Shown: positions 2,046-52,217 of the stretch, in pieces
Position numbering within the stretch: the stretch's first letter is position 1
How the letters are laid out: every line of letters begins with the position of its first letter
Assembly: GCA_937974645.1 (NCBI GenBank)
Contig: CALJVH010000013.1
Coordinates: 10,897 to 74,896, forward strand
Reading direction: 5' to 3'
Source: an uncultured archaeon
GTDB lineage: Archaea; Thermoproteota; Nitrososphaeria_A; Caldarchaeales; Wolframiiraptoraceae
Length of the DNA: 64,000 bases
Translations under genes and position numbers: made by a program
The notes under the pieces: model-generated
Told to the model about the DNA's origin: nothing
Seen by the model: only the letters and a program-made list of their open reading frames with translations
Database searches by the model: none

Positions 2046-3137
2046 TTAGAGTTCTAGGTTGCTGGCATCTATGTAGGCTAAGGGTGGTCCGCCCTTAGTA
2101 CCGGGCGTGACATAGACTTTGTCGGGAAACTGTATTGCTAAGCTGTTGAATGCGTCATGAATCGTATTTAGATCTGCAATTGAACCGGCCTCAATTAGCG
2201 ATATAATTGTCATGCACTCGAGCTTCAGAAGATCAACATTCTCCCCGAAGTATCTGCTCATGAGACTGTATGTCTCAAGAAGCGCCCTTGATGCCTCATA
2301 TCTGTCGGCAGGCCTATACACCTTCTCAAAGGGCTTCAGGAAGTCTCCGAAGAAGTAGTGCTCGATCTTATCCGATGGCATGGATGCGAGTTTAAGAATT
2401 CTCCCAGGATCGTAGATCGTCTGCTTATTTACTTCATATTTCCCTCTACCACTTCGCTTGAGAATGCCGCAGTCTACGAGCCATTCAAATCTCGGTGGTG
2501 CTATATGCCTGTACTTCGCATACTGGCTACTCTTAATCCACTCAATCTTATCCTTGATCATGAGCCTGCGCTCCCTAAACCTCTCAGCTTCTTGAACCTC
2601 CTTCATCCTGCTTCTCGGCATAACGCGCTTTAGCGCTTGCGGATAGGCTTCCTCCATCGCGTATATCATCGCTTCCTGTCGCCTAAACTTCTCCCTCTTT
2701 ATCGCCCAGCTAGCTATCAGCTGGATGAATGGGTGATCTCTCACGAAGATGTTCCAGAGGAAGAAGAGCTTCTCGGCGTCGTTCAGCATTAGGAGGTCTA
2801 TCAGCCTCAGCGACCTATCTCCCTCGACGAGCCTCCTGAACCTTGAGGCGCTTCTCGAGCACAGGTAGAGCTTCCCGAAGACCCCAAGCCTCTGGCTCCG
2901 CCTCTCTATCAGATCGAGCTCCGCCGCCAAGGTCACGTAGTTTCGAGCATTCACGGGGCTTGTGATGAGGCCGATTGGGCGCCCCGATAGAAAGTCCCTA
3001 TCGCCGACGCCCCTAACGATCTCGTGGAGAACAGATGCGAGGAAGTCGAACGTCTTCGGGGCCTCATCCTCCAGCAGGCACGGTATTATCCTGAGGTACC
3101 CGAGCCTGCAAATGTCTCCATGAGCCTCCAATATCAT
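2046..3137 (-). CDS. Hypothetical protein. Candidate restriction endonuclease partner of the upstream methyltransferase, on position only.
   Basis: Start overlaps the methyltransferase stop by 4 nt (ATGA) on the same strand. No recognisable family motifs; possible D...DAEK (PD-ExK-like) stretch is weak. Confidence 0.3.
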   Translation of the reverse strand: MILEAHGDICRLGYLRIIPCLLEDEAPKTFDFLASVLHEIVRGVGDRDFLSGRPIGLITSPVNARNYVTLAAELDLIERRSQRLGVFGKLYLCSRSASRFRRLVEGDRSLRLIDLLMLNDAEKLFFLWNIFVRDHPFIQLIASWAIKREKFRRQEAMIYAMEEAYPQALKRVMPRSRMKEVQEAERFRERRLMIKDKIEWIKSSQYAKYRHIAPPRFEWLVDCGILKRSGRGKYEVNKQTIYDPGRILKLASMPSDKIEHYFFGDFLKPFEKVYRPADRYEASRALLETYSLMSRYFGENVDLLKLECMTIISLIEAGSIADLNTIHDAFNSLAIQFPDKVYVTPGTKGGPPLAYIDASNLEL

Positions 3138-4339
3138 TCCTCCACCACCTCCCTCACTACGGTCAGCGGTCTCGCATTCTCCCAGTCGATGCGTATTGGG
3201 CTCGGCTTGAAGCCCCCCTTATGAAGCTCCAGTATCACCTCTTTGCTGACACCATCATCCTCTCCCAGATACCAGAGATACTTGTTTGATTTTGGGATAA
3301 AGTCGGAGATTATTCCAGCGACCTTGAATCCTATCTCCTCAGCTATCGGCGCTGTTACCCTAGCCATGTCAATAATCCTTCCCTTTAGCCTAACCCTTCC
3401 AAGTACTATTATCGCGGCTCTATCCCATCTAAGCACCCTGAATATCTCTTTAAGAACCTCCCTCATGAACTGCTTGAACCTATCAACCGATTCCGTGTGA
3501 AATAGCTTCCTCGCGACGTCCTCGTACTCATATCCTAGGAACCAGAGCCTCAGCCAATTATCCCAAGCATAGGTCTGCATATTGAAGTACGGCGGCGATG
3601 TTACGACCAAATCAATGGATTCATCTTCTATTGGAAGTTTTCTAGCATCGTGCATGTATGCCTGGCCTCTTACCGTCGGTATTCCATCCCTGAAAATCCT
3701 CAGCGCCTTCACCCTCAAGCACCTCAAAACATTCCTCCGCGGCTTCGAGAAACCATTCATCCTAGCATACCTCTTGACATACCCCGGAGCCATCGAAAAC
3801 GAGTGCGAGCATTTCAGGCTTAGATGAATCCTCGTAGGGCCATGAAGTATCCCGAGCATAAGAGCCCTCAGAAAGATCGCCAAATCCTCGTCCTCAGTCT
3901 CCTCAATGAGATCCCTAACAGCAAGTATCTGCTTGAGAGTATAATTGCTGAAGAAGGCTTTAACGTCATCACTCACTCCCGATATATCGTAGCCCCCCGG
4001 GTCAAGCCTCCTCTCAGCCCACCCAATCCACTCCAGAACATTCCTGAGAGAGGTGGGCCTAACCTTAGCCCTCGTCAAGACATAAGCCTCGGGCGATAAA
4101 TCATTCCCCACACCCACCCTACCGTTAAGGCACGCCTCGAGCGGGGCCGTACCCTTACCACTAAACGGGTCAAGAACCACATCACCAATCCTAGAATACT
4201 TCACCACGAAGTAGTAGGCGAGGGCTGGGGGGAAGCTACCCGTCCTAGAGCAGATCCTATGAAGAGCAATACCCCAACCATCCCTCGCACACTTCCACGA
4301 ATCCTCAAGTTCATAGCTTAGAAGATATTCCGACTGCAA
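3134..4339 (-). CDS. DNA methyltransferase, N6-adenine or N4-cytosine type
   Basis: AdoMet motif I DVVLDPFSGKGTAPLEA near the N-terminus and catalytic motif IV TSPPY about 190 aa downstream. This alpha-like order is characteristic of exocyclic amino-group DNA MTases. Confidence 0.8.
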   Translation of the reverse strand: MQSEYLLSYELEDSWKCARDGWGIALHRICSRTGSFPPALAYYFVVKYSRIGDVVLDPFSGKGTAPLEACLNGRVGVGNDLSPEAYVLTRAKVRPTSLRNVLEWIGWAERRLDPGGYDISGVSDDVKAFFSNYTLKQILAVRDLIEETEDEDLAIFLRALMLGILHGPTRIHLSLKCSHSFSMAPGYVKRYARMNGFSKPRRNVLRCLRVKALRIFRDGIPTVRGQAYMHDARKLPIEDESIDLVVTSPPYFNMQTYAWDNWLRLWFLGYEYEDVARKLFHTESVDRFKQFMREVLKEIFRVLRWDRAAIIVLGRVRLKGRIIDMARVTAPIAEEIGFKVAGIISDFIPKSNKYLWYLGEDDGVSKEVILELHKGGFKPSPIRIDWENARPLTVVREVVEE

Positions 4340-4643: not shown

Positions 4644-4779
4644 AGCCCGGTCGTCTAGCGGCCAAACCCGGCTGGTCAGATCGACAGGGGCCTTGGATTC
4701 CAGGCTCTGGATCCATTTTCATGAGGGGACACCTCGCGCCCAATACCTGGAGACGCCGGTTCGAATCCGGCCCGGGCTA
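4644..4779 (+). tRNA. tRNA-Gln(CUG), about 136 nt, with a canonical 37/38 intron (about 34 nt) and an additional about 30 nt insertion in the D-arm region
   Basis: Acceptor AGCCCGG/CCGGGCU with discriminator A. D-loop AGCGGCCAA is typical of archaeal tRNA-Gln. Anticodon stem CCAGG/CCUGG with loop CUCUGG^A split by an intron. T-arm GCCGG-UUCGAAU-CCGGC. Confidence 0.6.
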
Positions 4780-4859
4780 TAACCTCCCCTCTTTCAATAT
4801 TCCCCCTATCGTATGTGCGAAGTAGATTGGGGAAAGAAAGGTGGGGTTGGGCTGGTTGG

Positions 4860-5600
4860 GCGTCGTTTCTAGTAGTCCGTGTCCTCTGAGATATTCTTCG
4901 AGCTGCCGTTGTTTTCTCTAGATTGTGAATCCCACGAGCTGATAGAACCTCAGCAGATGTGACACCCTGATATAGAGATAGTAGACGTTCCTCTTCCTCA
5001 TGTATGTCTTCCCCCTCTCCTTGTTAAAGATGGAGGTTCCTTTCTTTCCTTGTAGATGTGGGCCCGTCGCCTCCGATCCCCCAGACCATGTAAGAGTTTC
5101 TGGATGTATTTGAGGAGGCGTCTATCCGAGTTGTAGCATATAATGTCTCCATCGCCTCTATCTGCATATTCCTCGCTGTCGAAGAATCCTCTCAGGAAGC
5201 TCCTCGCACAATCCTCGGAATGCTCCACGAACCGTCTTATCCCATCTATATCGATGGGCTTTCTTAATAGGTCGTAGAGGGCTTTCGACCGAACCCGCAC
5301 CACAAACAATTCCCCCCTCACTGCTGGCCTCGGCGGACTCCTGCCGAGAACTTTCCCAAGCATCTCGCGAATTCCTCTATGAGCTCCCTGTCCTTGGCCC
5401 TTGCGTCGATCACATACTGGCCGCTTCTTATGCTGATTTTACAGGCTGACCCATCCCCTGCTACAACGCCTATGATGTAAGCGAGCTCGGGAGACGGCTT
5501 TAAGAGGAATCCCTGGATGAGTTTGAGGAGTCGATTAGGCAGTCCGCGTGACACCCAAGTAAGAGAGCCGCAGATAACCGAGCCGCTGTAGCCTCATAGA
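4860..5600 (-). pseudogene. Decayed paralog of the LAGLIDADG-family gene at 49996..51078. Frameshifted, with an internal stop and a truncated N-terminus.
   Basis: ORFs 5318..5554 and 4998..5363 plus a downstream frame encoding ...LLRFYQLVGFTI* align colinearly with the intact copy (LAYIIGVVAGDGSACK, FLRGFFDSEEY). Conserved 3' flank next to a tRNA. Confidence 0.6.
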
Positions 5601-5791
5601 TAGATACGCCAGCTTCATGAAATAAGCGGCCATAAATCGATTTATGGCCGCCGAGGACTCAGGTTCAAACAAGCAATCTCATCGATGCGATAGGATGTCA
5701 GGCCGTATATGTGCGCCAGCTACTGGCAATATGAGGCAACTGCTTTATGCAAAAACGGTTATATCGGTGGGTCTGCATAAAAATTAGAGAC

Positions 5792-6334
5792 TTGAAGGCA
5801 TATTCCGTCAGCGTCGTCGGCCGAGTATAGTGCGTGGGCTACAGAAGATACGTCCTCGAGGTTGCCCAAGAGTTGGGTGTAGCCGGCTTCGTGAAGAACG
5901 AGGAGGATGGCTCAGTATCCATATTCGCCCAGGGTGAGGATGAGGCTCTAGAAATGTTCCTTGATAGGGTAAAAAATCCGCCGCCACCAGCTGTGATCAG
6001 AGAGGTGAAGATAGCTCCCTCGGCGCCTAAACGTGGATTAAAAGTATTCAAGATAAGATACGGCCGGCTCGCAGATGAGCTACAGGAGAGCCTCGGCACG
6101 ATGCAAATGATATTCGTATCCTACTGGGATGAATTCAGGGACTTCAGGGGTGAATTCAAAGATTTCAGGAATGAGTTCAGAGATTTTAGGGATTTGTCGA
6201 TTAAGCTGTCTCAAGAGACGCTGGAGGAGGTGAGGGAGTTGCGGCGGGACCTTCGAGCACTCCTCGACGAGAGGCTGGCTAGGCTGGAGAGGGATGTGGC
6301 TGAGATAAAGGCAAGGCTAGGGCTATCTCCCTAG
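5792..6334 (+). CDS. Acylphosphatase-like domain fused to a C-terminal charged repeat/coiled-coil region. Interrupted by an in-frame TAG at 5828-5830, so a possible pseudogene, or translation restarts at GTG 5834.
   Basis: Upstream frame TTG-KAYSVSVVGRV-TAG-CVGYRRYVLEVAQELGVAGFVKNEEDGSV matches the acylphosphatase core V.GrVQGVgFR...GWVrN..DGsV with Q replaced by a stop. C-terminal tandem DEFRDFRGEFKDFRNEFRDFRD repeats. Confidence 0.45.
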
Positions 6335-49821: not shown

Positions 49822-49875
49822 CTCCATTTGTGAGCCGGAAAAAATAAAAATCCCTAAGATGAGATTTAGGTGCAA

Positions 49876-49976
49876 GCCCCGGTAGCTCAGGCTGGTTAGA
49901 GCGCCGGCTTGGTAACCTTCACAAGAAAGGGCCTAGAGAGCCGGAATGGTCGTGGGTTCAAATCCCACCCGGGGCT
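49876..49976 (+). tRNA. tRNA-Thr(GGU) with 24-nt canonical 37/38 intron
   Basis: GCCCCGG-UA-GCUC-AGGCUGGUUA-GAGC-G-CCGGC-UUGGUA^A-GCCGG, var AAUGGUC, T-arm GUGGG-UUCAAAU-CCCAC, acceptor CCGGGGC, discriminator U. Confidence 0.7.
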
Positions 49977-49995: not shown

Positions 49996-51078
49996 TCATG
50001 TTGCAGGCGTGAAGCAAAAGGAAGGGGGAGAGGGTTTGTTGGGCGGCGCTTCGCCATCTTCCACTAGTCCGCGTTTTTTGAGGCGTTCTTCGAGCCGTTG
50101 CTGTTTTCTTCGTATTGTGAACCCTATTAGTTGGTAGAACTTTAGCCTGCTTCGCGCTCTAACATAAAGAATGTAGACGTCCCCCTTCCTTACATACGTC
50201 CTCCCCATGTCCCTGTTGTAAAGGGGCGTCCCCTTCTCTTTCCGTACGTATGCTGTTGTTTCGACCCCCAGACCATGTAAGAGCCTCTGAACGTATTCGA
50301 TGAGCCGGATATCTGTATTGGCGCATTGAAGAATTTCCCCACCTCTGCTCACAGATCCCTCGCTGTCGAAGAATCCCCTCAGGAAGCTTCGTATGCACTC
50401 CTCTGAATGCTCAACGAATGGCTTTATCCTTTCTACGTCTATGGGCTTCCTGAGCATGTCGTAGAGTGCCCTCGAATAAACCCTTACCATAAACGACCCA
50501 TCCTTTCTTGGCATCGGCCTCGGCGGATCCCTGCCGAGAACCTTCCCCAAGCATCTCGCAAACTCCTCCACGAACTCCACATCCTTGGCCTTCACGCTGA
50601 TCACGTACTGGCCGCTTTTCCTGCTATTCTTACATGCCGTCCCGTCTCCGGCAACGACGCCTATGACATATGAGAGCTCGGGTGACGGCTTCAAGAATTT
50701 AATGGACGGAATCCTGCATCCATTAAGTGGATTGTGGATTCCCCTACACCAGTGGCAGATCGTGGCGGGGTTCAACCTAATCCCGTAGATCTCCTCGACC
50801 ATCCTCCCTATCCTCCTGTGTCCGAGGCCCTGCCCCCTCAGCTCCAGAACCCTATGATATATCTCGATCCTCAGATCTCGCGGGAGATATTCTCCACGCC
50901 TCTTCACCCTATCAGGGAAGAGCTTATAATACCAGTACTCGACGGCTTTCCTCGAAACATCCACCCCATCTTCCCGCAGCATCCTCCAAGCCATCGTATA
51001 CCCATATCCTCGCTGAACAGCTACCCTCAAGGCCTTCAAAACCCTCCACCTCACATCAGGCGGCATTCCTCGAGGCAT
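49996..51078 (-). CDS. Double-motif LAGLIDADG-family protein (endonuclease fold) with a 140-aa N-terminal basic, possibly DNA-binding, extension
   Basis: Motif 1 LSYVIGVVAGDGTA and motif 2 FLRGFFDSEGSVS, each followed by the expected helix. Intact 360-aa ORF immediately 3' of tRNA-Thr. Confidence 0.75.
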   Translation of the reverse strand: MPRGMPPDVRWRVLKALRVAVQRGYGYTMAWRMLREDGVDVSRKAVEYWYYKLFPDRVKRRGEYLPRDLRIEIYHRVLELRGQGLGHRRIGRMVEEIYGIRLNPATICHWCRGIHNPLNGCRIPSIKFLKPSPELSYVIGVVAGDGTACKNSRKSGQYVISVKAKDVEFVEEFARCLGKVLGRDPPRPMPRKDGSFMVRVYSRALYDMLRKPIDVERIKPFVEHSEECIRSFLRGFFDSEGSVSRGGEILQCANTDIRLIEYVQRLLHGLGVETTAYVRKEKGTPLYNRDMGRTYVRKGDVYILYVRARSRLKFYQLIGFTIRRKQQRLEERLKKRGLVEDGEAPPNKPSPPSFCFTPAT

Positions 51079-51250: not shown

Positions 51251-51287
51251 GTGAAAATGGATGTCGCGGGTTCAAGGCCCGCCCGGG
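51251..51287 (+). repeat. Imperfect direct repeat of the tRNA-Thr 3' half (T-arm plus acceptor) with compensatory T-stem substitutions. Putative att-like duplication bounding a 1.3-kb insertion.
   Basis: aatggatgtcgcgggttcaaggcccgcccggggct versus tRNA aatggtcgtgggttcaaatcccacccggggct (GUGGG/CCCAC changed to GCGGG/CCCGC). Confidence 0.5.
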
Positions 51288-52217
51288 GCTCATTATATGA
51301 ATTCCGTGAATGAAATTAAGGAAAAAAGTAAAGGAAGGTTAAGTAGCATTTCAGCATCCATTATTCATAGTGACGCAGATATTGGATGAGTTGGATAAGT
51401 TCATGAGCACCCAAATGGGCCAGAGCATCTTCGCGCTTCAAGTCGAAGATGCAGATCTGGAGAGGCTGAGGAAGACATGAAAGCTATGTTGCTTATTCTG
51501 CTCGATACCTGTTGAAAGGCTATTACATCTACAAGGGGCACGCGCTCAAGATGCAGAGTCCAGTGATAACGTTGGTCGAGAGGCTGGGAGATGTTGCAAA
51601 CGTCGAAAAAGATCTGCTCATCCGCCTCTCAAACCTCTTCGTAATGCACGAAAAAATTCTAGGCCTAGAAAGCTTAATTATGCTCGCACGCTTCCCAAGG
51701 TGGGGCCTTGACCTGCCGGCGCGCGTTCCAGGGGGTAAAATTCGAATGGAAGTTGAAAGATTTAGAGGGCGACGTGGAGTATTGAGTGGTTGGGAAGAGG
51801 GATGAGAAATCCGGCTATTTTACAGTTTTATTCGATGTAAGGATGGATAAGAGGAGAGGTGTCAGTACGATAGACTTCGAGGTCTTCGGATTTTCTAGGC
51901 ATGTGGTTGAAGGCATGGGATGGAAGACCTTAGAGGACGCGATAATGGCCCTGAAAGAGTAGATAGTGGAGATGAAGATATCGGCTCTAGGATGTCATGT
52001 TAAGTGAAATCCACGGATAAGAAAGAGGTAAAGGAGAAGCTCTTGGAGCTTATGAGAGCTTTCGGCTAGTCCCTCGATTAAGGAGCGGCGGTAATAGCAA
52101 CAGTCCTGCTTTTCAGAAAGGCCTCTTAGGAGGAGAAAGATGGATTACTAGAGAGTGCGATGCCGTTAAAAGCGAGAAGCTTGATTTTTATTATCGCCAT
52201 ATGTTCTTTTTGGTGGC

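Follow-up and report, generated by a model that had tools for sequence, protein, structure and literature searches.

Why should the remains of an endonuclease gene lie directly beside one transfer RNA (tRNA) gene, and an intact relative of it beside another? The question is raised by a 64,000-nucleotide (nt) stretch of DNA from an uncultured archaeon of the Caldarchaeales, family Wolframiiraptoraceae (assembly GCA_937974645.1, contig CALJVH010000013.1, positions 10,897 to 74,896), hereafter the window. It holds only two copies of a gene for a helix-turn-helix (HTH)-LAGLIDADG endonuclease: a pseudogene facing tRNA-Gln (copy A) and an intact gene facing tRNA-Thr (copy B). Homing endonucleases have been described chiefly in introns and inteins, and each is bound to a single target. 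The answer favoured here is that both copies probably represent a free-standing element whose homing endonuclease targets tRNA genes, copy A being in the phase of decay. The element, a small and selfish single-gene unit of approximately 1.3 kilobases (kb), is likely to settle at the 3′ ends of tRNA genes in archaea, with its gene oriented toward the tRNA. Taken alone, copy A is an ordinary pseudogene; its worth lies in the pattern that it exposes jointly with copy B.

The decayed and the intact gene

The main features of the two loci, numbered by their position in the window, are as follows.

4644–4779, plus strand: tRNA-Gln(CUG) with two introns (approximately 33 nt in the D-loop region and approximately 37 nt in the anticodon loop); Rfam RF00005, 38.1 bits
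4780–4832, no strand: spacer of 53 nt that separates the tRNA-Gln 3′ end from the onset of detectable homology to copy B, drawn from the alignment limits
4833–5505, minus strand: copy A, pseudogene of an HTH-LAGLIDADG homing endonuclease
49875–49976, plus strand: tRNA-Thr(GGU) with one intron; Rfam, 53.1 bits, and ARAGORN with introns allowed
49996–51078, minus strand: copy B, intact HTH-LAGLIDADG homing endonuclease gene of 360 amino acids (aa); open reading frame (ORF) and Pfam LAGLIDADG_3

The sequence-only reading of the window had proposed a second, decayed LAGLIDADG gene on the minus strand 3′ of tRNA-Gln, and this is borne out by nucleotide comparison. A blastn search aligns 4867–5505 to 50059–50696 with 71.6 % identity over 651 columns (E-value 5 × 10−86), and a gapped local alignment extends the significant similarity of the two loci to 4833–5505 against 50017–50696 (70.3 % over 697 columns), with copy A matching codons 128–354 of copy B. 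When the 360-aa product of copy B is used as a tblastn query, copy A is matched in three reading frames, and the lesions that separate these frames can be mapped as listed below.

5506–5351, minus strand: tblastn segment matching copy B residues 128–179
5360–5034, minus strand: tblastn segment matching copy B residues 177–285
5079–4843, minus strand: tblastn segment matching copy B residues 271–351
5358–5359, minus strand: first frameshift, a 1-nt deletion relative to copy B position 50548 (net −1), from the indel list and the change of frame between the first two segments
5074–5077, minus strand: second frameshift, two 1-nt insertions relative to copy B at 5077 and 5074 (net +2), from the indel list and the change of frame between the last two segments
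4918–4920, minus strand: in-frame TAG, where copy B has CGA (Arg) within I-R-R-K, from the base-by-base alignment

The decay had been described as one frameshift and one TAG; the TAG stands, whilst the single frameshift gives way to two net frameshifts and a truncation of the 5′ end. Alignment to copy B reveals, in addition, several further indels that cancel one another and the deletion of 9 nt near the C-terminus. With regard to the truncation, homology ends at 5497–5507 in comparisons with copy B and with 15 relatives from other genomes, or at 5519 in the case of the relative L026; codons 1–127, which encode the HTH domain, are therefore missing. Both LAGLIDADG motifs are retained (IIGVVAGDG and FLRGFFDSEE). 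A gene-proximal flank of 4865–4960, held to be conserved at 50060–50150, proves to be C-terminal coding sequence, as the ORF of copy B extends to 49996 and includes it, and is no better conserved than the rest. The spacers themselves are dissimilar, that at 4780–4832 having no match in its counterpart at copy B.

Mismatches between the two copies fall at 20 % of first, 18 % of second and 38 % of third codon positions. This measure was used in place of the ratio of non-synonymous to synonymous substitution rates for copy B, as its closest homologues are 57–61 % identical and synonymous sites are thus saturated. Divergence at third positions is about double that at first and second positions, and copies A and B are therefore old, separately maintained lineages, not the outcome of a recent duplication. 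From this pattern, purifying selection acted on both copies whilst most of their 30 % divergence accumulated, and copy A was inactivated later.

Two other observations concern the surroundings of copy A. A palindrome with perfect 12-bp arms, GCGGCCATAAAT CG ATTTATGGCCGC, occupies 5622–5652, in the 330 nt that separate the truncated 5′ end of copy A from the next gene (5834–6334); it could be a terminator or the mark of a deletion junction. Antisense to the 3′ end of the pseudogene, 4858–4933 (plus strand) weakly resembles the C/D-box small nucleolar RNA family snoR117; at 21.5 bits (E-value 0.13) the match falls short of the gathering score, which is 42, and was treated as probably due to chance.

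Copy B displays all the features of a gene in its own right. It has its own ATG and stop codon, is preceded by a ribosome-binding-like sequence (GGAGGTGAT) and is intergenic between the tRNA and the next gene, whilst the tRNA introns are short and elsewhere; it is thus free-standing, outside any intron or intein. Its product matches Pfam LAGLIDADG_3 in two stretches (2.3 × 10−20) that contain the motifs VIGVVAGDG and FLRGFFDSEG, and a sequence search of solved structures returns the nuclease domain of PI-PfuI and I-DmoI. The N-terminus matches HTH_21 weakly, and homologues give both HTH_21 and HTH_32. In an AlphaFold (AF2) model with a mean confidence score (pLDDT) of 84, two three-helix units (residues 7–53 and 67–112) precede a core at 133–335 with the double alpha/beta fold of LAGLIDADG nucleases. 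Foldseek places this core on I-DmoI (E-value 8 × 10−10, template modelling score 0.73 relative to the target), and the model and this match together support two half-domains of the alpha-beta-beta-alpha-beta-beta-alpha type; WhiA, a LAGLIDADG-plus-HTH transcription factor, appears lower among the structural matches. Invariant in 26 homologues of 42–61 % identity are G144-D145-G146 and D238/E240/G241; both catalytic acids, D145 and E240, are thus kept, and the nuclease is catalytically plausible. The protein is therefore described as a bipartite transposase-like HTH joined to a monomeric, I-DmoI-like double-LAGLIDADG nuclease. No integrase family and no catalytic transposase domain is found in it with Pfam and NCBIfam.

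The tRNA that copy A faces is less easily seen. tRNA-Gln(CUG), with an anticodon loop of CU-CUG-G, fits the full Rfam RF00005 model (1–71) with two insertions (E-value 4 × 10−6, cutoff 29 bits), and was overlooked by default ARAGORN and by the Rfam scan of the whole window; ARAGORN with introns allowed miscalled it as Ala. As default ARAGORN and the whole-window Rfam scan missed this gene, further multi-intron tRNAs in the window may be undetected. Its 3′ end faces copy A, the two being convergent and 54 nt apart, and copy B is likewise convergent with tRNA-Thr(GGU), its stop codon lying 19 nt from the tRNA 3′ end. The claim that both tRNAs display the same architecture therefore stands.

A G-rich block on the tRNA strand (approximately GGGAGGGTTGGYTGGG) recurs just past the endonuclease stop in Aigarchaeota-type copies, at 4835–4860 and 50030–50057 in the window and 30–90 nt after the tRNA end in related loci. 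It reads PPNQPSP where the ORF continues, and a similar block, more degenerate, persists in copies whose ORF stops earlier, which hints at a role at the DNA or RNA level. Upstream of tRNA-Gln, a 401-aa ORF (3134–4339, minus strand) carries an SPPY motif typical of N4/N6 DNA methyltransferases, as read from its translation alone.

Association of the family with tRNA genes

The product of copy B has 132 relatives in databases, from metagenome-assembled genomes (MAGs) of Nitrososphaerota/Aigarchaeota and from Nezhaarchaeales, Jordarchaeales and Thermococcales, and a scan of one genome per species adds members from Caldarchaeales, Geocrenenecus, Wolframiiraptor, Bathyarchaeota and Nitrososphaerales, giving 80 loci in total (numbered here with the prefix L). 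Copy number per genome is considerable: at least 14 in the MAG PSS.bin.6, at least eight in three other MAGs and six in JBEPYO010000001, a contig of 1.55 Mb that represents a complete genome. About one third of the copies (27/80) are frameshifted or truncated. Partial second copies, consisting of 3′ portions, lie less than 2 kb from full copies in L025 (1881–2279, at Gly-TCC) and L048 (721–1217, at Ser-TGA); as these adjoin further tRNA genes, decayed remnants at tRNA ends are common.

For the tRNA census, ARAGORN with introns allowed was applied to the 72 loci with at least 200 nt of downstream sequence. A convergent tRNA lies within −30 to +150 nt of the gene 3′ end in 40 of these, against 0.2–0.34 expected from tRNA density, and within 400 nt in 44; across the 72 loci adjacency is enriched more than 100-fold. 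The associated tRNAs represent 29 anticodons and 18 amino-acid identities. Rfam together with inspection adds two tRNA-adjacent loci, L021 and L022. Several ORFs run into the tRNA on the opposite strand, and some database proteins consequently end in unusual C-terminal tails, GGIRT being one example. The same convergent arrangement, 0–40 nt from an initiator tRNA-Met, is found for distant homologues in Pyrococcus sp. ST04 and Thermococcus sp. MAR1.

The last two cases are single family members abutting the initiator tRNA (L083, 2365–2442, and L084, 2359–2433, for ST04 and MAR1). A search for an empty site in Pyrococcus and Thermococcus by way of the neighbouring iron–sulphur assembly gene gave no informative comparison, as synteny breaks there; in P. 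abyssi and T. chitonophagus this neighbourhood has neither the tRNA nor the endonuclease, and the region is therefore regarded as a rearrangement breakpoint. A tRNA-Leu with an 892-nt intron, called by ARAGORN at L041, is a spurious fusion, the adjacent gene being an intron-bearing tRNA-Arg(CCG). In the same locus (4885–4925 and 3936–4055) a tRNA-like 5′ half lies 0.9 kb from the tRNA-Arg(CCG) that abuts the endonuclease copy, and this orphan half may be another product of element activity.

In PSS.bin.6, ten copies lie at ten different tRNAs and share a common sequence (ATATTAGTTATTATTTTGAG...) that begins 0–2 nt after the discriminator base. The L019/L041 pair, from another MAG, similarly shares sequence from the tRNA end onward. 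The tRNA-side end of the element is therefore sharp and equals the tRNA 3′ terminus. No equally sharp boundary on the far side is common to the PSS.bin.6 copies, which are preceded by two or more alternative upstream modules as well as by further short repeats, with no single end. In a neighbour-joining tree of the nuclease core, the copies of one genome that group most closely adjoin different tRNAs (in SKYB24 Pro, Ser and Val, in PSS.bin.6 Pro and Ser, in BF2 Val and Arg); either the element has moved from one tRNA species to another, or resident copies have evolved in concert. A common T arm among the occupied tRNAs, considered as a sign of co-conversion across tRNA species, was rejected, as T arms are diverse within one genome.

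A displaced and apparently replaced tRNA-Thr 3′ end

At copy B the association with the tRNA goes beyond adjacency. One further feature is required here.

51259–51290, plus strand: the former 3′ end of tRNA-Thr, now displaced, 32 nt long and spanning the variable loop, T arm, 3′ acceptor strand and discriminator; from the repeat search and local alignment

This fragment is a direct repeat of 49949–49976, on the other side of copy B (28 nt, 86 %, 24/28; repeat family D1), and its local alignment to tRNA-Thr has a score of 36 that was reached by 0 of 1000 shuffles. The two repeat copies differ at four of 28 positions, including a compensatory pair in the T stem, and do not form an identical attachment-site (att) core. 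The 1.29 kb between them holds the endonuclease gene alone, with no other ORF and no integrase, and the repeat search reveals no terminal inverted repeats at copy B.

Comparison with empty sites suggests which of the two repeat copies is the original. A metagenome scan with the upstream PmbA/TldD-like protein identified four loci (L087–L090, with 65–70 % identity to this protein) in which an intron-bearing tRNA-Thr(GGU) follows the gene by approximately 55–70 nt, as in the window, and in which no trace of the endonuclease gene is present at the tRNA-Thr(GGU) site. The locus is thus polymorphic, with the gene present in the window and absent from L087–L090. Measured against these four tRNA-Thr genes, that of the window no longer has the ancestral form in its 3′ third, beginning with the variable loop: its T stem is GTGGG/CCCAC, its T loop is TTCAAAT and its variable loop is 2 nt longer. 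The fragment at 51259–51290, by contrast, matches the tRNA-Thr 3′ ends of L087 and L088 at 30 of 32 positions and keeps the T stem GCGGG/CCCGC, so that the orphan piece is nearer to the tRNA-Thr of related genomes than is the working tRNA-Thr of the window. As the fragment matches the empty sites and the working tRNA departs from them, it would seem that the insertion replaced the 3′ third of tRNA-Thr and pushed the old one across. In its simplest reading, therefore, the insertion at copy B swapped the tRNA from the variable loop on and displaced the original segment. The proposal that insertion is tRNA-adjacent holds at both loci, and at copy B needs to be extended: there the tRNA 3′ third appears to have been replaced and the old one left behind.

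Similar displaced fragments that start at the variable loop occur in L003 (tRNA-Val) and in L063/L079 (tRNA-Arg). That of L003 keeps the T stem GCCGG/CCGGC of other Val tRNAs, whilst the functional tRNA diverges more than the fragment, as at copy B. Only copy B, L003 and L063/L079 are convincing cases. Duplication of the tRNA 3′ end across the gene is not general, judged on 37 loci by local alignment, a T-arm motif scan and an acceptor 8-mer scan, the last of which gave 0.59 matches per kb against 0.57 in controls and thus no enrichment. No displaced tRNA-Gln fragment is present past copy A (score 15, reached by 314 of 1000 shuffles).

Two other candidates were set aside. A tandem tRNA-Val in L003 (4200–4300), considered as a tRNA carried by the element, is a scaffolding artefact, in which two identical 130-nt ends enclose a run of N. 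The tRNA-fragment match of L080 belongs to a repeated upstream module that is also found in L028, L042 and L057. In these four loci the module, approximately 60–120 nt upstream of the gene, contains CACC(A/G)ACCGGCCCC, a sequence similar to a tRNA-Pro/Val 3′ end; this tRNA-like piece may be an old displaced fragment that now travels with the element.

Mechanism, alternatives and meaning

The favoured explanation, a homing endonuclease element targeting tRNA genes, can be set out as a cycle. The nuclease would cut element-free tRNA genes within the 3′ third, close to where the anticodon stem meets the variable loop, a position proposed because the displaced fragments begin there. The break would then be repaired by copying from an element-bearing donor, first the variable loop, T arm and acceptor strand, then the endonuclease gene, with the donor 3′ third plausibly being a cleavage-resistant version. 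Where the far flank lacks homology to the donor, illegitimate joining would follow on that side, and the recipient's own 3′ third would survive as a fragment. After fixation, with no targets left, selection on the nuclease would lapse and the gene would decay, as in copy A. The sequence-only suggestion of repeated tRNA-targeted insertion followed by decay is supported by the convergent tRNAs of 40 of 72 loci, the 29 anticodons, the 27 decayed copies among 80 and the empty sites of L087–L090.

Such a route follows the logic of free-standing homing endonucleases in phages. There, in what is termed intronless homing, inheritance includes co-conversion of neighbouring sequence, and here it is the tRNA 3′ third that may have been co-converted. 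The seg/mob genes of T-even phages, such as SegB in the T4 tRNA cluster, likewise place a stand-alone nuclease gene beside a conserved target gene, whereas they are of the GIY-YIG or HNH type, reside in phage genomes and occupy one locus each, as opposed to an archaeal LAGLIDADG family with many tRNA loci per genome. SegB and tRNA genes are mentioned in one published account (PMC13096335).

With regard to the nuclease itself, copy B resembles I-DmoI in fold, matches both I-DmoI and the nuclease domain of PI-PfuI in sequence, and has two LAGLIDADG helices that each end in an acidic residue. The gene for I-DmoI, however, lies in an rRNA intron and that for PI-PfuI in an intein, whilst the family described here is free-standing, is found at many tRNA identities and, unlike I-DmoI, has an additional N-terminal bipartite HTH of approximately 125 aa. 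A homing endonuclease with a tRNA gene as its target is known in I-Ssp6803I, from the group I intron of cyanobacterial tRNA-fMet; this enzyme differs in being intron-encoded, in its PD-(D/E)xK fold and in its restriction to one specific tRNA, with insertion in the anticodon loop. Generic targeting of tRNA genes, irrespective of anticodon, is a property of yeast Ty3 and of TRE and DGLT-A in Dictyostelium. These are reverse-transcriptase elements that are guided by RNA polymerase III factors and insert at a distance, in contrast to a nuclease element joined to, or within, the tRNA 3′ end.

A number of points weigh against the favoured explanation. Most loci, copy A included, lack a displaced tRNA fragment; about a third have no adjacent tRNA by the methods used; and in L010, L018, L038, L068 and L073 the tRNA is instead co-directional. 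The DNA past the tRNA in L087–L090 is not syntenic with the window, so that these loci are empty sites on the tRNA side only and the far junction at copy B is unconfirmed from the flanks. Concerted evolution among copies could mimic spread within a genome. We infer both the cleavage site and the route of spread between tRNA species, the former from the start points of three or four displaced fragments. Finally, the repair route fails to explain how tRNAs of different identity are reached and each left functional; this spread is difficult to accommodate because occupied T arms differ and the shared sequence begins at the tRNA end.

The main alternative is a transposition-like insertion with a wide staggered cut. 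Here a break staggered by approximately 30 nt (tRNA positions approximately 44 to 73) would be filled in, giving a target-site duplication of the 3′ third, whilst the HTH would direct the protein to tRNA genes and the working tRNA would later mutate to escape re-cutting. The tRNA-side boundary, exact for ten tRNAs in one genome, is more easily obtained by insertion than by copying from a donor tRNA, and the weak HTH_21 match of copy B, like the HTH_21 and HTH_32 matches of its homologues, is typical of transposases. LAGLIDADG nucleases, however, make a site-specific double-strand cut in a long target and leave 4-nt 3′ overhangs, not 30-nt staggers; terminal inverted repeats were not found at copy B, and most copies lack the duplication. 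In addition, at copy B and L003 the dead fragment has stayed closer to the ancestral state than has the functional tRNA, which favours a foreign segment over a duplication. A transposition-like origin is thus rather unlikely.

Integration of the type used by SSV1 and pNOB8 produces the same outcome as that seen at copy B, namely a rebuilt tRNA and a displaced partial copy as a direct repeat (PMC3293823). On this account the endonuclease would be a passenger in the remnant of a virus or plasmid whose SSV- or pNOB8-type tyrosine integrase has since been lost, with the repeats as attL and attR, and the presence at copy B of this classic signature speaks for it. A precedent exists in Caldiarchaeum subterraneum, in which Sugahara et al. 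(2012) described a multi-copy insertion of 1,868 bp at tRNA-Thr(GGU), with a repeated segment of 545 bp, an 813-bp ORF for a putative recombinase and a leftover tRNA fragment, and invoked pNOB8-type integration thought to be specific to tRNA-Thr (PMC3293823). The likeness to the present family extends to the phylum-level lineage, the tRNA species, the small multi-copy single-ORF unit and the leftover fragment, and the ORF length equals that of the 271-aa Caldarchaeum members (813 nt), a comparison by description and length only. Differences include an ORF co-directional with the tRNA, a leftover that is a 5′ fragment and the specificity for tRNA-Thr given by the authors. A link between their ORF 'b' and the family is unconfirmed, no C. 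subterraneum names being present among the database matches. The structure of copy B itself departs from SSV1- and pNOB8-type integration in several respects: an insert of approximately 1.3 kb without an integrase, the endonuclease gene being the only ORF with family support between the repeats; no integrase family among the Pfam and NCBIfam matches of its protein; and repeats that differ at four of 28 positions, a compensatory stem pair included, with no identical core. Furthermore, the single-gene unit recurs at 29 anticodons, with up to at least 14 copies per genome, as opposed to one att site. An integrase origin is accordingly improbable.

Conservation beside tRNA genes across phyla, and the presence of WhiA among the structural matches, would also suit a domesticated, non-cutting DNA-binding factor tied to tRNA expression, with copy A as a lost redundant paralogue. 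WhiA has lost its catalytic LAGLIDADG residues, however, whereas both catalytic acids are invariant here. There is no copy at the empty tRNA-Thr sites and as many as 14 or more in one genome, a third of the copies are pseudogenes, the gene is absent at orthologous sites and its tRNA partners vary by genome; such a regulator is very hard to credit. An integrase is lacking, as are an identical att core and terminal inverted repeats, and the catalytic residues are kept; on these grounds both this and the integrase origin are much less likely readings. An ordinary segmental duplication of A and B, with tRNA adjacency by coincidence, would fit the presence of only two copies in the window, and is scarcely conceivable given that both tRNAs and all flanking DNA are unrelated, that the approximately 30 % divergence follows a coding-type substitution pattern and that adjacency is enriched more than 100-fold across the 72 loci.

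With the targeting of tRNA genes by a homing endonuclease element thus retained as the favoured explanation, a tRNA-gene-targeting HTH-LAGLIDADG family appears to have gone unrecognised as such before; a full-text literature search identified no publication that connects LAGLIDADG genes with the tRNA genes of archaea. A free-standing LAGLIDADG family present at tRNA genes of at least 29 anticodons in several archaeal phyla would represent a new targeting strategy. Being short, essential and universally conserved, tRNA genes are ideal long-lived targets, and the apparent replacement of the tRNA 3′ third suggests that a 'rescue' of the cut gene is built in. The pattern would also provide a concrete mechanism for the leftover tRNA fragments and the heterogeneity of tRNA genes in Aigarchaeota, earlier ascribed to unidentified integrases (PMC3293823). 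Should the nuclease recognise a feature common to all tRNA genes, the HTH-plus-LAGLIDADG architecture would be of interest to enzyme engineers.

More tentatively, and with the balance somewhat against it, the single-gene HTH-LAGLIDADG units of approximately 1.3 kb might constitute an unrecognised class of archaeal mobile element that colonises the 3′ end of essentially any tRNA gene, cutting the 3′ third and bringing a cleavage-resistant replacement. If so, they would be a natural analogue of the 'cleave-and-rescue' gene drive on essential genes, and scattered tRNA fragments and swapped segments could be among the origins of the fragmented, split and multi-intron tRNA genes typical of these archaea.

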